A stretch of 64,000 bases of DNA, from the NCBI RefSeq assembly GCF_046105845.1, contig NZ_CP151004.1. One strand, given 5' to 3'. The notes beneath the pieces are model-generated. The model did not search any database, was not told where the DNA came from, and worked only from the letters and a program-made list of their open reading frames with translations. This stretch comes from Escherichia coli (GTDB lineage Bacteria; Pseudomonadota; Gammaproteobacteria; Enterobacterales; Enterobacteriaceae). Each line of letters begins with the position of its first letter. Positions within the stretch are counted from its first letter, which is position 1. A program made the translations under genes and the position numbers. This document shows positions 16,462-50,752 of the stretch, in pieces.

Positions 16462-17373
16462 TCATACTGGTAACGCTAGTTGCTTTTTTTTAAACGCCTC
16501 AATGGTCGATTTATATTTCTCGCAAATCTTTTCTTCGGTAATATCACTATCTGCGGCCAGATTCGCACTTACTATCGCATCCACTTGTTCGGCTAATTCG
16601 ACTTGTTGGCAACCTGCATTAACCAGAAAATTATAAATAAGAGAGTAATCTTCATCCTCCAAAACAACAGAGGAACCATTACGAAAACGTTCATCCCCTC
16701 CATAGATTTTAAGCGCAAAGCCCAAAGATTCTATGACTATGGCAAAATTATCATCAATTATTTTTTCGTAAATATACCATCCATCGCATTCTTTAATTCC
16801 ACCTCCTGGAATTTGGAGGTCAAATTTACCCCGTTTTAATTTACTTACTATATCATCCAATACAGCATAACCTAAAGACACGTCACCAAACGCCTGGCGA
16901 ATATAACCTTTAATCCTTTCCGGTATGTCAGACTGTTTTTTCTGCAAAATATCCCAGGCATACAATCTTCTGTTTTGTTCTAACGGAAACTCGCGGTTTT
17001 TGAAATCCATGAATGAGTTATACTCATTTATTGTTATGGGAATTTCTTCGTATTCAAATCCACTGCCTCGCAATGTCATTATATATTCGGCACCGTTATC
17101 TTTAAGGCTGAAACTGATAAGAAACTTATCCATGGTGTTAACAGTTTCATTTTTTGATGAAAGTACCTGATAACTATTTTTATCAATCTGAGTTGCGCAA
17201 CGAAAGAACTCCCGCAAAGTTAACAGGCTATCATAATTTGAAATCCAATCTTTTTTATTAAATGCATGCTGGATATTGTTAAAAAAATTGTTTGAATGTG
17301 TTTTTGTATGCGATGATTTTATAAATAACTCCACCGCACCAATAAAATTATTGTGTCTGATCCTGGGTAACAT
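16462..17373 (-). CDS. ytfI: uncharacterised protein, low-GC gene
   Basis: 303-aa ORF in markedly AT-rich DNA between cysQ and ytfJ; no recognisable domain. Confidence 0.7.
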   Translation of the reverse strand: MLPRIRHNNFIGAVELFIKSSHTKTHSNNFFNNIQHAFNKKDWISNYDSLLTLREFFRCATQIDKNSYQVLSSKNETVNTMDKFLISFSLKDNGAEYIMTLRGSGFEYEEIPITINEYNSFMDFKNREFPLEQNRRLYAWDILQKKQSDIPERIKGYIRQAFGDVSLGYAVLDDIVSKLKRGKFDLQIPGGGIKECDGWYIYEKIIDDNFAIVIESLGFALKIYGGDERFRNGSSVVLEDEDYSLIYNFLVNAGCQQVELAEQVDAIVSANLAADSDITEEKICEKYKSTIEAFKKKQLALPV

Positions 17374-17584
17374 ATGGCTACCTTATTTTATTTGGTTATT
17401 TTATGTCGCCATTAAATATCTCATTATAGAAGTAAACTATCAAAAAACGCTCATTATTAAAATGTAACTTATTAGCAATTGAATTTTTGCACTTTAAATA
17501 CAATCTCTTTTTATTTATAACTTTTTAGGTTGGGAGAAATCAGGATGGCAGAATCAGGAAATACACTGTTTCTGCCATCTGAAT

Positions 17585-22013: not shown

Positions 22014-22988
22014 ATGCCAGTAATGATTAGCGGCGTGCTGTACGCCCTGTTAGCAGGGTTGATGTGGGGGCTTATTTTTGTCGGGCCGTTGATCGTGCCG
22101 GAATACCCGGCGATGTTGCAGTCGATGGGGCGTTATCTGGCGTTAGGGTTAATTGCGCTGCCCATTGCCTGGCTGGGACGCGTGCGTCTGCGTCAGTTGG
22201 CGCGTCGCGACTGGCTTACCGCCTTGATGCTCACCATGATGGGCAACCTCATCTATTACTTCTGCCTTGCCAGTGCCATTCAACGTACTGGCGCGCCTGT
22301 TTCCACGATGATTATTGGCACCCTGCCGGTGGTGATTCCCGTTTTTGCCAATCTGCTTTATAGCCAGCGCGACGGCAAACTCGCGTGGGGAAAACTCGCC
22401 CCGGCACTGATTTGTATTGGCATCGGCCTGGCGAGTGTGAATATTGCTGAGTTAAACCACGGACTCCCCGATTTTGACTGGGCACGTTATACCTCTGGCA
22501 TCGTGCTGGCGTTAGTTTCCGTGGTCTGCTGGGCATGGTATGCCCTGCGCAACGCCCGCTGGCTGCGGGAAAATCCCGACAAACATCCGATGATGTGGGC
22601 GACGGCGCAGGCGCTGGTCACGCTGCCGGTTTCGCTTATCGGCTATCTCGTCGCTTGTTACTGGCTGAATACGCAAACGCCGGACTTCTCCCTACCTTTT
22701 GGCCCCCGTCCGCTTGTATTTGTTAGCCTGATGATTGCGATAGCTGTGCTTTGCTCATGGGTCGGCGCACTTTGCTGGAACGTCGCCAGCCAGCGATTAC
22801 CAACGGTGATTCTCGGGCCACTGATTGTCTTCGAAACGCTGGCAGGTTTGCTGTACACCTTTTTGTTACGCCAGCAAATGCCGCCACTAATGACGCTGAG
22901 CGGTATCGCACTGTTAGTGGTTGGCGTGGTCATTGCGGTCAGAGCAAAACCAGAAAAACCTTTAACTGAATCTGTTTCAGAAAGTTGA
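22014..22988 (+). CDS. ytfF: DMT-superfamily (EamA-like) inner membrane transporter
   Basis: 324-aa polytopic membrane ORF; true start may be the internal Met at 22023. Confidence 0.82.
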   Translation: MPVMISGVLYALLAGLMWGLIFVGPLIVPEYPAMLQSMGRYLALGLIALPIAWLGRVRLRQLARRDWLTALMLTMMGNLIYYFCLASAIQRTGAPVSTMIIGTLPVVIPVFANLLYSQRDGKLAWGKLAPALICIGIGLASVNIAELNHGLPDFDWARYTSGIVLALVSVVCWAWYALRNARWLRENPDKHPMMWATAQALVTLPVSLIGYLVACYWLNTQTPDFSLPFGPRPLVFVSLMIAIAVLCSWVGALCWNVASQRLPTVILGPLIVFETLAGLLYTFLLRQQMPPLMTLSGIALLVVGVVIAVRAKPEKPLTESVSES

Positions 22989-23046
22989 CACGCTGGCAGT
23001 GAGTTAAATAAGCCTCTGCTACGTAAGGGTTATAGCTTTTGCCTTA

Positions 23047-23069
23047 AAGGTGCATTTAAAATGAATCTT
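23047..23069. promoter_or_regulatory. NsrR-type operator (11-1-11 inverted repeat) upstream of ytfE
   Basis: AAGGTGCATTTaAAATGAATCTT about 27 bp upstream of the ytfE ATG, matching the NsrR AAGATGCATTT-n-AAATGCATCTT pattern. Confidence 0.7.
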
Positions 23070-23095
23070 ATCTTATTAAGAATGAGGTATCAGCT

Positions 23096-23758
23096 ATGGC
23101 TTATCGCGACCAACCTTTAGGTGAACTGGCGCTCTCTATTCCTCGCGCTTCGGCTCTGTTTCGTAAATATGATATGGATTACTGCTGCGGCGGTAAGCAA
23201 ACGCTGGCGCGTGCGGCGGCACGTAAAGAACTGGATGTTGAGGTCATTGAAGCTGAGCTGGCAAAGCTTGCTGAACAACCGATTGAGAAAGACTGGCGTA
23301 GCGCCCCGCTGGCAGAAATCATCGACCATATCATCGTGCGCTACCACGATCGTCACCGCGAGCAACTGCCGGAGCTGATCCTGCAAGCGACTAAAGTCGA
23401 ACGCGTTCACGCCGACAAACCGAGCGTTCCAAAAGGGCTGACAAAATACCTGACTATGCTGCATGAAGAGCTTTCCAGCCACATGATGAAAGAAGAGCAG
23501 ATCCTCTTCCCGATGATCAAACAAGGCATGGGCAGCCAGGCAATGGGGCCAATCAGCGTAATGGAAAGCGAGCACGATGAAGCGGGTGAACTGCTGGAAG
23601 TAATCAAACACACTACCAATAACGTCACACCGCCGCCGGAAGCCTGCACCACCTGGAAAGCGATGTATAACGGCATTAATGAACTGATTGATGACCTGAT
23701 GGAGCACATCAGTCTGGAAAACAATGTGCTGTTTCCGCGCGCACTGGCGGGTGAGTGA
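23096..23758 (+). CDS. ytfE: iron-sulfur cluster repair di-iron protein (RIC)
   Basis: 220-aa ORF ([35 protein letters not shown]…) with hemerythrin-like repeats. Confidence 0.93.
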
Positions 23759-26361: not shown

Positions 26362-27000
26362 ATGCCCGGGCGCTTTGAACTAAAACCAACCCTGGAGAAA
26401 GTCTGGCACGCGCCGGACAATTTTCTCTTCATGGACCCGCTGCCGCCGATGCATCGTCGGGGGATCATTATTGCCGCCATTGTATTGGTGGTCGGATTTC
26501 TGCTTCCATCTGATGATACGCCCAACGCGCCGGTGGTGACGCGTGAAGCGCAGTTAGATATTCAGTCGCAATCACAACCACCGACAGAAGAACAGCTGCG
26601 GGCGCAATTAGTCACGCCACAAAATGATCCTGATCAGGTGGCTCCGGTCGCTCCAGAACCAATACAGGAAGGCCAGCCAGAAGAGCAGCCGCACCCCCCC
26701 CAAACGCAACCATTCCAGCCAGATAGCGGAATTGATAATCAATGGCGCTCTTACCGTGTCGAACCCGGTAAAACGATGGCACAGCTGTTCCGCGACCACG
26801 GGCTGCCCGCTACCGATGTCTATGCAATGGCGCAGGTAGAAGGCGCGGGTAAGCCGCTGAGTAATTTGCAAAACGGGCAGATGGTGAAAATCCGCCAGAA
26901 CGCCAGCGGCGTGGTGACGGGCTTAACCATTGATACGGGGAATAATCAACAGGTCCTGTTTACCCGTCAGCCGGATGGCAGTTTTATTCGCGCGCGGTAG
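26362..27000 (+). CDS. ytfB: OapA/LysM-like cell-division-associated protein
   Basis: Start trimmed to [21 protein letters not shown]… (212 aa); single TM then periplasmic domain. Confidence 0.85.
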
Positions 27001-27134
27001 ATGAAGGGTCAACCAGAAGCCAGCTAAGGAGCGTCTCTTTGATGACCTTACGTCTGGCTTCCAGTGCCTGGGGTGAAACCATACTGATATGTTGACATCC
27101 TCCACGCCCTGAAGGACGTGGATCCCTGCTACGT

Positions 27135-28343
27135 TCAGGCTGTCGCCTGAATCATTTCGGTGGGTTCCTGCTTCAACGAGCGGCCTGACTGCACCATCTC
27201 TCCACAGGCAAGAACGGCGTGCCCCGCCGCTAAAATGTTACGAGCGCCGTTTACATCGGCGTTCGCTGTATATCCACATGCCTGGCATCTGAATTGACTT
27301 TGTGACAGGCGATTTTCTTTCGCTGTATGACCACAGCACGCGCAACGCTGGCTTGTGTACGCTGGCGGAACAGCAAGCACCTGACCGCCACGCCAGAGCT
27401 GCTTGTACTCAAGCTGGCGGCGCATTTCATACCAGCCCTGATCCTGTATCGAACGGTTTAAACCTGATTTTGCCCGGACATTGCGCCCCGGCTGGCTGAC
27501 CGTACCCGCTGCTGACTTTGACATGTTGCTGACCTTCAAATCCTCAATGACTATCATTGCGTGGTTTTTGCTGACGGTCGTTGTGACTTTGTGAAGGTAG
27601 TCCCTGCGGATATTTGCGATACAGGAATGCAGTCGCTGTATTTTGCGTTTCTGCTTCTGCCAGTTGTTGCTGAATTTGACCTTGCGGCTTAACTGTCGCT
27701 GAAGTCTCGCCAGCGTCTTCTGGTTTTTCTGAAAACTGTTTACAGGCCCAAAGACTGTGCCATCTGACAGCGTGGCGAGTTTAGCCACGCCAGCATCCAG
27801 CCCGACCATTGATGCTGAAGGGTGAACCGGAGTTGATACTTCATTTTCAGTCTGAATACTGATGTACCACTTACCGCAGGACTGGCTGACAGTGACATTT
27901 TTCACAACACCCGTGACCTGACGGCTATTCCGGTAGCGCATACAGCCAAGTTTCGGCAGAAAAATACGGCTGTTTTCCTGATCGAGCTTAACGCCCTGCG
28001 GGTAGCGGAATGCATCATTCTGTCCCCGCTTTTTGAATCGGGGAAAAGCAGCCCGCTTCTGGAAGAAGTTTTTGTAAGCCCGCTCAAGGTCTTTCAGTGA
28101 CTGTTGCAATGGCTGTGACGGGGCATCTTTAAGCCATTGCGTTTCAGTGGCATTTTTCCACTCAACCAGCCAGGAAGCCATTTTCCCGTAAGGGATGTAT
28201 TTATTACCGGCCTCATGATTCTCATTCTGAAGCGCCAGAGCACGATTGAAAACGAAACGACATGCGCCTGCGAAGCGCCTCATTTCACACTCCTGTTGAC
28301 CACCTGGTCTTAACTGGAATTTAAATGCCTGTAATCGTTTCAC
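27135..28343 (-). CDS. tnpB: TnpB (OrfB_IS605) RuvC-like RNA-guided endonuclease
   Basis: 402-aa ORF with RuvC-I (GLDAGV), RuvC-II (IVIEDL), zinc finger (CACCGH…CQACG) and RuvC-III ([10 protein letters not shown]) motifs. Confidence 0.9.
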
Positions 28344-28350
28344 AGGTCAA

Positions 28351-28782
28351 ATGATACTTTGGTCTATGAAAAAAGAAACCGATATCCGGCGTGGAAAGCA
28401 TTGTGTTTTCCTGATGCATGTTCACCTGGTCTTTGTCACCAAATACCGACGCCAGATTTTTGACCATGACGCGAAAGAAAAACTACGCACTTACTTTTCA
28501 AAGGTATGTGCTGATTTTGAAGCTGAACTGGTTGAAATGGATGGCGAACCAGATCACGTCCATTTGTTAATTAACTATCCTCCCAAACTGGCGATATCCA
28601 GTCTGGTAAACAGCCTCAAAGGCGTATCGAGTAGGTGACTGCGACGAGATCGACCAGATATTGCAGTCAGGTATTACTACAAAGGCGTTTTGTGGAGTCC
28701 TGGCTATTTTGCCAGTAGCTGCGGAGGTGCGCCAATATCCGCCATCCGTCAATACATTGAACAACAGCAAACACCTGGTTAG
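28351..28782 (+). pseudogene. tnpA: IS200-like Y1 HUH transposase TnpA interrupted by in-frame TGA
   Basis: HUH motif (PDHVHLLINYPPK) before a TGA at 28636..28638; the same frame continues (LRRDRPDIAVRYYYKGVLWSPGYFASSCGGAPISAIRQYIEQQQTPG) to TAG at 28780..28782. Confidence 0.75.
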
Positions 28783-28797
28783 GTGGAAAACCGCGCC

Positions 28798-29055
28798 TTA
28801 TATCCCCGCCCTGAAGGACGGGGTTTTACGGCGCACTGGATAAACCAGGCCAAGCGTATGCTGGTTGATCAAATAATATCCCCCAAGCGCAGCAATATTA
28901 ATATTCACCTGCAATGGGTCGCTATCTGCCTTAAAAATATTGTGTTTCTTCCCTTCATCCAATAATTCCATTAAATGCAAGTGCGCATGATTAATTTCTA
29001 AGAGACGCTGTGATTTTGCATAATGCACACCTTTACTTTGGTTTTCACTATGCAC
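28798..29055 (-). pseudogene. ytfA: ytfA-like remnant ORF; 3' end reads into the IS left-end hairpin
   Basis: 85-aa GTG-start ORF; last 7-8 codons (…TPSFRAGI) are encoded by the IS terminal hairpin; upstream in-frame TAA near 29182. Confidence 0.4.
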
Positions 29056-29405
29056 AATTTTTAAAAACCTGGGATTAGCAATATAATAACCCCAGGTAAA
29101 ATCGATGATTTTTTCAATGGATTTTTGTGGCTGGTTAACCTGCTGATTAACGAACGCACCGATACCGACAGCGTAGAATAATTACATACCGCACAACAAG
29201 AATGTATGGTGTAAGGCGTTGTCAGTCATCTCCCTCCCTGGATGCATCGTTATATCCGTGATGAGCGATTTTTGATATTAATATCTTTCACCATCCGCTA
29301 TCTTCACTACTTCAGAAAACAAACTTATTTTTATTAATATCGATTATTTATTCTGTGCACATTCAGCTGCGATATTTATAAAAAAATTAAACAGGCAAAA
29401 ATACA

Positions 29406-46773: not shown

Positions 46774-46806
46774 AAAAAAAAACCATCCAAATCTGGATGG
46801 CTTTTC
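46774..46806 (-). terminator. rho-independent terminator downstream of rlmB
   Basis: On minus strand CCATCCAgattTGGATGG followed by TTTTTTTTT. Confidence 0.85.
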
Positions 46807-46820
46807 ATAATTCAGAGGAA

Positions 46821-47565: not shown

Positions 47566-47636
47566 GTTTACGTTTTGCCGGGAGCGCCACGCTTGCCCGG
47601 CCTACGGATAATTCACCCTCTTCTGTTTGAAGAGGG
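47566..47636. repeat. REP-like unit plus hairpin in rnr-rlmB intergenic region
   Basis: GCCGGGAGCGCCACGCTTGCCCGGCCTAC followed by CCCTCTTCtgtttgGAAGAGGG. Confidence 0.5.
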
Positions 47637-50122: not shown

Positions 50123-50548
50123 TCACTCCACCAGCAATAATTTATAAAGCGGTTGATTCTCTTCAACCAAATCGGCAAGCGTGTAGTTATCCAGTTCCGT
50201 AAGAAAACTTTGCACGGCCTTAGAAAGCGCCTGTTTCAACCGACAGGCAGGTGTAATGTGGCAAAACTCACTGCTGCAATTCACCAGCGATAAGGGCTCC
50301 AGCTCGCGCACCACATCACCAATACGTATCGCACTCGCCGGTTTACCCAGACGAATGCCGCCATTTTTTCCACGAACAGCAGTCACGTAGCCGGCACGAC
50401 TAAGTTGATTGATTATTTTGACCATATGATTACGGGAGACGCCGTAGACGTCAGTCACTTCAGAAATACTGGTCATCCGCCCTTCTGGCAATGACGCCAT
50501 GTAGATCAGCGCACGTAATCCGTAATCAGTGAAACTCGTTAACTGCAC
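50123..50548 (-). CDS. nsrR: NO-sensing Rrf2-family transcriptional repressor
   Basis: 141-aa ORF ([31 protein letters not shown]…); stop overlaps rnr upstream region. Confidence 0.93.
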
Positions 50549-50752
50549 ATCAACCTCAAAAGGGAAAACGGGAAAAAATACATTTATATTGATGATAAAC
50601 CAGCCACAAGCTGTGTCGCTAATTTATTTCAGTTCGGGGAAGGAAAAAAGCGAGGATTTAACACTGTGTCGGATAGCGTAATGGCTTACCCGACACAGCA
50701 ATGTATCACACTGTTAGCCCGGCAGGCAAAATATCTGCCAGGCGTACCAGAA

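Follow-up and report, generated by a model that had tools for sequence, protein, structure and literature searches.

The window, that is, the whole stretch of 64,000 nt analysed here, consists of core chromosome of the E. coli type and extends from fbp to mutL, reversed relative to K-12 numbering. It carries ytfE together with two neighbours: ytfF, which encodes a DMT transporter, lies upstream on the same strand and ends at 22988, and cycA is located downstream in convergent orientation. In 5,414 E. coli genomes, the matching DNA is annotated in RefSeq as ytfF and ytfE. Within the 107-bp ytfF-ytfE intergenic region, a 23-bp inverted repeat was read directly from the + strand at positions 23047-23069 (AAGGTGCATTTAAAATGAATCTT). 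The gene for the NO-sensing repressor NsrR is found in the same window between purA and rnr. The features discussed below and the natural alleles of the repeat are compiled in the table.

Table. Features of the ytfE-nsrR circuit in the window and alleles of the ytfE operator (bases at operator positions 4/17/18)
Feature	Position	Strand	Remarks
ytfE	23096..23758	+	220 aa, di-iron RIC/YtfE protein; NF008221, Pfam ScdA_N + Hemerythrin
Shine-Dalgarno sequence of ytfE	23084..23087	+	GAGG, 8 nt before ATG; conserved across genera
NsrR operator of ytfE (predicted)	23047..23069	+	23-bp 11-1-11 inverted repeat AAGGTGCATTT-A-AAATGAATCTT; PWM 28.4 bits; positional ortholog of K-12 and CFT073 operators
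Left half-site of the operator	23047..23057	+	AAGGTGCATTT; 10/11 to consensus AAGATGCATTT; departure A>G at position 4
Right half-site of the operator	23059..23069	-	AAGATTCATTT (minus-strand reading); 10/11 to consensus; departure at operator position 18
Candidate -10 hexamer of the ytfE promoter	23057..23062	+	TAAAAT, at the operator centre; inferred
nsrR	50123..50548	-	141 aa, GTG start; cognate Rrf2-family NO-sensing repressor; NF008240, Pfam Rrf2
Allele A/A/C (K-12 type)			exact in 3,317/5,426 genomes
Allele A/G/C (perfect palindrome)			exact in 886/5,426 genomes
Allele G/G/C (PCN033 type)			exact in 75/5,426 genomes, strain 1190 included
Allele A/G/A			3/5,426 genomes
Allele G/G/A			window; 0/5,426 complete genomes

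YtfE is full length. It matches the NCBIfam equivalog NF008221 over residues 1-219 of 220 with 417 bits (cutoff 254) and is composed of an ScdA_N domain with a CC pair at residues 30-31 and a C-terminal hemerythrin-like domain. This exact YtfE allele is very common in E. coli. The sequence-only reading had named the open reading frame behind the repeat as ytfE and called it a nitrosative-stress repair gene. The gene assignment stands; the repair label is dated. YtfE has been argued to act as a nitrite reductase that generates NO, with feedback on NsrR (Crack et al., 2022; PMC9052748).

NsrR scores 293 bits against NF008240 (cutoff 182) and contains the Pfam Rrf2 domain. It is 100% identical to NSRR_ECOLI, with M for the GTG-encoded first residue, and Cys91, Cys96 and Cys102 are present. 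In comparison to a K-12-type strain, the gene, its GAGG ribosome-binding site and the 212 nt upstream show three synonymous changes and two upstream single-base differences. The distance of 27 kb that had been given between repeat and regulator gene is accurate: 27,053 nt lie between the end of the operator and the nsrR stop codon and 27.5 kb between the operator and the GTG start. Likewise, the family profiles bear out that the window holds both regulator and target, and that both are intact.

Two observations concern the region upstream of nsrR. At position 50568, 20 nt upstream of the GTG, the nsrR strand has a T, compared with an A in K-12 and PCN033. nsrR is reportedly poorly translated, a statement said to go back to Chhabra and Spiro in 2015. 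In addition, an NsrR half-site with 13.5 bits is located 27-37 nt upstream of the GTG (50575-50585, + strand, AAAATACATTT; overlapping on the - strand at 50576-50586, TAAATGTATTT). By its position, it hints at autoregulation. As a random 64-kb sequence should contain about two half-sites of this score, this one is not distinguishable from chance and was dismissed. purA, the gene upstream of nsrR, goes unmentioned in the main text of PMC5320621, the CFT073 ChIP-seq study.

The repeat between ytfF and ytfE has the 11-1-11 architecture that had been read from the letters, with arms complementary at nine of 11 positions. Compared with a perfect palindrome of two inverted AANATGCATTT separated by a 1-bp spacer, 21 of its 23 bases are identical. 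Operator position 18 corresponds to window position 23064, and the change there is C>A on the + strand. The spacing to ytfE, previously estimated at about 27 bp, is exactly 26 nt between the end of the repeat and the ATG at 23096.

The intergenic region can be aligned without gaps to those of K-12-type, O157:H7, CFT073-type and other E. coli strains. In this alignment, the 23-mer coincides with the known ytfE operator, for which both genetic and ChIP-seq evidence exists, and is orthologous to the CHARACTERISED site. The ytfE site was predicted by comparative genomics with the core consensus gATGyAT-N5-ATrCATc (Rodionov et al., 2005; PMC1274295). In CFT073, the ytfE operator has the top PatSer score genome-wide and is covered by an NsrR ChIP-seq peak; nitrate raised ytfE 70-fold in the same study (PMC5320621). 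Similarly, ytfE mRNA was found to be up 544-fold in a Salmonella nsrR mutant (PMC2884951), and an EHEC PytfE reporter responds to NO donors (PMC7336997).

For quantitative assessment, a position weight matrix (PWM) was derived from the 27 11-1-11 sites in Table 4 of Mehta et al. (2015) for CFT073 (PMC5320621). The ytfE site and one duplicate were removed, and the counts of the remaining 25 curated sites were symmetrised and converted to log-odds. When the whole 64-kb window was scanned with this leave-one-out matrix, the ytfE operator obtained 28.4 bits, more than any of the 25 other curated NsrR sites, of which hcp is the best with 26.5 bits. The second-best position in the window reached 13.5 bits, which is chance level. 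In 60 Markov-1 random sequences of 64 kb each, the mean maximum was 13.6 and the overall maximum 21.1 bits, and none of 3.84 million positions reached 28.4. A matrix built from ChIP-positive sites alone yielded 26.0 for the operator versus 11.9 for the next position. The half-sites were also scored individually: the left one has 14.4 and the right one 14.1 bits (median of the 50 curated half-sites 10.1), and each of them scores above 45 of these 50. The scan with a curated motif that had been suggested for the repeat has thus been performed, and the poor score that would have spoken against NsrR did not appear. Together with the column-for-column orthology to the K-12 and CFT073 ytfE operators, this very high score supports the original assignment to NsrR.

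Apart from the ytfE operator, the PWM scan of the 64-kb window revealed no full NsrR site above chance. Four half-sites of at least 13 bits were observed, two of them in the ytfE operator, compared with 2.1 expected. A stretch at 17248-17506, intergenic between cysQ and ytfI according to the collinearity with PCN033, consists of AT-rich DNA and contains full-site scores of 13.5 and 12.3 bits as well as a half-site of 14.3 bits at 17460-17470 (AAGTTACATTT). All these matches, the half-site included, were rejected as chance level. Neither cysQ nor ytfI is mentioned in the main text of PMC5320621.

Operators of the same kind are found beyond E. coli. Species-representative genomes were scanned with a pattern whose fixed positions bias the resulting sample, and at least 120 loci matched. 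Among the matches listed, at least 11 lie directly upstream of a ytfE homolog; the genera and species represented are E. albertii, Citrobacter, Enterobacter, Kluyvera, Pseudescherichia, Superficieibacter and Mangrovibacter. Nine of 10 enterobacterial operators among the matches listed are located exactly 26 nt before the ATG and one at 25 nt; the 26-nt spacing is conserved in E. albertii, Citrobacter, Enterobacter, Kluyvera, Pseudescherichia and Superficieibacter. Position 4 varies in the ytfE operators of other genera among these matches (A, C, T). By contrast, position 18 is C and its symmetric partner G in 11 of 11 listed other-genus operators, a count to be read with the pattern bias in mind.

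Taken together, the 23-bp repeat is very probably the ytfE operator for the NO-sensing repressor NsrR. We assign a probability of about 0.88 to this reading, which includes that regulator, target and operator are intact, that NsrR binding is retained and that the circuit is expected to work. Judged by alignment and motif, 23047-23069 is the already known ytfE NsrR operator and neither a new element nor a new kind of element.

The mode of action can be outlined from what is known about the regulator. According to PMC9052748 and PMC5320621, NsrR is an Rrf2-family Fe-S cluster repressor whose cluster-bound form binds the palindrome, and nitrosylation of the cluster by NO abolishes DNA binding. 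For E. coli and Salmonella, it is established that a holo-NsrR dimer with its Fe-S cluster on three cysteines occupies the 11-1-11 palindrome of the ytfE promoter and blocks transcription. Upon nitrosylation of the cluster by NO, NsrR dissociates from the DNA, with strong induction of ytfE as the result.

How NsrR would interfere with transcription depends on the position of the promoter. TAAAAT in the operator centre is the only 5/6 match to TATAAT in the intergenic region and most likely represents the -10 hexamer of the ytfE promoter; the candidate -35 box is poor (2/6). The inverted repeat upstream of ytfE is said to overlap the -10 element, as Bodenmiller and Spiro reportedly noted in 2006. 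NsrR on the operator would cover TAAAAT, so that repression would presumably rest on RNA polymerase occlusion. With TAAAAT as the -10 hexamer, transcription would start near 23069 and the leader would comprise about 26 nt. In this case, operator positions 17 and 18 would be the first two bases of the discriminator, and it is conceivable, albeit speculative, that the polymorphisms there touch promoter kinetics. A generic promoter/terminator scan called no promoter at the operator region, full-text literature searches yielded nothing on a ytfE transcription start site, and ytfE is not listed in the Kim 2012 supplements.

Since a conserved block with TATAGC is located 12 nt upstream, a different layout is conceivable, in which the start site would immediately precede the operator. 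TATAGC is part of a block AAAGGG(T/G)TATA(G/T), which lies at 23025-23035 in the window (AAGGGTTATAG), about 12 nt upstream of the operator. E. coli shares this conserved block with Citrobacter, Enterobacter, Kluyvera and Pseudescherichia, and it was also found upstream of ytfE at seven further loci. The genera outside Escherichia carry a CRP-type palindrome TGTGA-N6-TCACA, which is perfect in Citrobacter werkmanii and has its centre about 30 nt upstream of TATAGC. With TATAGC as a hypothetical -10 box, this palindrome would have class II geometry (about -41.5 or -42.5). It is missing upstream of ytfE in E. coli and E. albertii. The other genera may have a second, activator-dependent ytfE promoter, or the block may be a regulatory site that has escaped recognition.

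For a census of operator alleles, 43-nt queries were compared with 5,426 complete E. coli genomes, and alleles were named by the bases at positions 4/17/18 (see table). In the rest of the genomes, the flanking part of the 43-mer deviates, and the counts do not extend to them. Based on these counts, G4 is a minor natural variant, and A18 is very rare. Strain 1190 is one of the G/G/C carriers and, over 20 kb, one of the best matches of the window as well. At the locus, the three A/G/A genomes share only 94.8% identity with the window; A18 thus arose there independently or was transferred via a very short recombination tract. The G/G/A allele was not found in a metagenome collection either, although this zero weighs little since a control pattern found only 44 E. 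coli-type operators there (29 A/A/C, 13 A/G/C and 2 G/G/C). Furthermore, it is absent from 20 contigs that encode exactly the YtfF or YtfE protein of the window. In two of the three complete genomes with A18, FDAARGOS_1285 and strain 98203, ytfF is annotated as a pseudogene with an internal stop. First alignments, in which intergenic variation appeared at three operator positions only, suggested the operator as a polymorphism hotspot. With 19 sequences, three variable columns in the 23-bp operator faced seven in the 84 other intergenic bp, which is no real enrichment, and the idea was abandoned.

What do G4 and A18 mean for NsrR binding? Position 17 is the degenerate 'r' of the Rodionov consensus, whereas positions 4 and 18 are capital-letter positions (PMC1274295). 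Among the 50 curated half-sites outside ytfE, position 4 is A in 20, T in 21 and G in nine cases, which makes it effectively degenerate. At half-site position 6, which pairs with operator position 18, 28 of the 50 have G, 10 have A, nine have T and three have C. The bases of the window, G at position 4 and T at half-site position 6, hence each occur in 9/50 (18%) of the curated half-sites. Among ChIP-positive sites, the variant bases are present in c0118/c0233 (ATGAAT) and arnA (GGTGCAT). The PWM assigns 31.1 bits to the CFT073 palindrome, 30.4 to the K-12 and 29.9 to the PCN033 allele. From these data we predict that the G/G/A operator is functional and at most mildly weaker than the K-12 and CFT073 alleles. 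A18 may cost more affinity than a matrix made from weaker sites implies, because position 18 is conserved in the Rodionov consensus and is C in 11 of 11 other-genus operators among the matches listed.

Three other explanations of the locus have to be weighed, and the first is that the repeat is no NsrR site at all. It might be a chance palindrome in AT-rich intergenic DNA, where the generic promoter/terminator scan anchored nothing, a hairpin or terminator of ytfF, or a site for FNR, CRP, Fur or NarL. A PWM score far beyond random expectation and the orthology to a ChIP-validated site make this extremely improbable. The individual candidates fare no better: the repeat folds no better than shuffled sequence (z = -0.3 as RNA, -0.6 as DNA) and no terminator was called, and the best intergenic matches to the FNR, CRP, Fur and NarL consensus sequences do not surpass those in shuffled sequence. 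A sequencing or assembly error at 23064, with the PCN033-type AAGGTGCATTTAAAATGCATCTT as true operator, is somewhat easier to imagine, as the window allele is one base away from an allele of 75 genomes and was itself seen nowhere else, neither in complete genomes nor in metagenomes nor in the 20 contigs mentioned above. Yet, the window diverges by about 1.5% from its best complete-genome matches over 20 kb and by 0.8-1.9% from PCN033 across its length, so that real private SNPs are far more common than errors in finished genomes. Moreover, 23064 does not fall into a homopolymer-length ambiguity, and the same C>A exchange at position 18 occurs in three independent complete genomes. We therefore regard an error as very unlikely.

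The third explanation accepts both the site and its sequence and proposes that the operator is impaired: two off-consensus bases, especially the one at position 18, would reduce the affinity for NsrR and leave ytfE partly derepressed without NO. In this case, the source lineage would have undergone a cis-regulatory change of ytfE expression. Both changes strike conserved positions of the Rodionov consensus, the score is 1.5-3 bits below those of the K-12, CFT073 and PCN033 alleles, and A18 is restricted to three of 5,426 complete E. coli genomes and occurs in none of the 11 orthologous operators of other genera among the matches listed. If TAAAAT is the -10 box, position 18 would be the second base downstream of it, and, by general reasoning, promoter kinetics could shift. 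Against impairment, the operator still outscores every non-ytfE NsrR site including the strongly regulated hcp, both half-sites belong to the top 10% of curated half-sites, and the variant bases occur in the ChIP-positive sites named above. In addition, NsrR reportedly needs no more than one good half-site to bind (Partridge 2009, cited by PMC5320621 and PMC3887101). On balance, impairment is unlikely, and a weakening large enough to matter physiologically appears equally unlikely from the sequence comparisons. Slightly less likely still is that G4/A18 constitutes an adaptive cis-regulatory variant and not neutral drift, with both half-sites weakened and, consequently, lower NsrR occupancy at ytfE. 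If this were true, basal YtfE would be higher or the NO threshold for induction lower; as NsrR is limiting in the cell, its sharing among other targets could shift; and C18>A on an unrelated haplotype in three genomes would be a sign of recurrent selection. An intact operator that binds NsrR remains the preferred reading.

Over the window as a whole, gene order is standard for E. coli. The best identity over 20 kb to any of the 5,426 complete E. coli genomes is only 98.5%, which means that complete RefSeq E. coli genomes cover the source lineage poorly. Window and PCN033 are collinear, with an identity of 98.1-99.2%, and no IS insertions separate the two. An IS200/IS605-family element (27135-28343 on the - strand, roughly 26980-29130) contains an intact 402-aa TnpB/InsQ ORF with the Pfam domain OrfB_IS605, a Cas12f1-like TNB domain and HTH_OrfB_IS605. 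According to the collinear PCN033 annotation, a tnpA remnant flanks this element, and the insertion is located in a gene for a TetR/AcrR-family regulator. At about 46805-46815 (rlmB/yjfI), the window lacks a 5.1-kb PCN033 island with genes for an IclR regulator, a DHDPS-family protein, an MFS transporter and a UxaA-family hydrolase. At about 47605-47615 (rnr/rlmB), about 100 bp present in PCN033 are missing.

The source strain has a complete NsrR-ytfE circuit comprising regulator, operator and target, which is of little import beyond annotation. Nothing at the ytfE operator challenges current understanding, and the sole new point is its allele. As an element of NO biosensors, the ytfE operator is in wide use, and it looks like the highest-affinity NsrR site in E. 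coli. For these two reasons, the catalogue of five natural alleles is a small practical resource for sensor tuning and for structure-function analyses of positions 4, 17 and 18.

Among known systems, the K-12 operator AAGATGCATTTAAAATACATCTT (Bodenmiller and Spiro, 2006; Partridge et al., 2009) shares with the window the locus, the 23-bp register, the 26-nt distance to the ATG and both flanks, and the NsrR proteins are identical. Three bases differ from K-12 to the window: A>G at position 4, A>G at position 17 and C>A at position 18. The CFT073 operator AAGATGCATTTAAAATGCATCTT is a perfect palindrome (Mehta et al., 2015; PMC5320621) with orthologous position and the same half-site architecture. 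It matches the window in 21 of 23 bases, and due to G4 and A18, neither half-site of the window is perfect. A more distant likeness concerns Neisseria, where the symmetric G/C pair in the core of the NsrR motif is replaced by T/A (Rodionov et al., 2005; PMC1274295). The identical replacement is present at the corresponding position of the right half-site in the window. Unlike in the Neisseria motif, it affects one half-site alone, and the window encodes E. coli NsrR in unchanged form. The likeness extends to one position and does not amount to membership in that motif class. The nearest allele and haplotype is that of PCN033, which has G4 and G17 in common with the window and differs in the operator by a single base, C18 in PCN033 versus A18 in the window. 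Over 901 bp around ytfE, the two sequences are 99.8% identical, and one of only two differences is C18>A in the operator. The allele of the window is, therefore, best described as the G/G/C allele with one extra, apparently private substitution.
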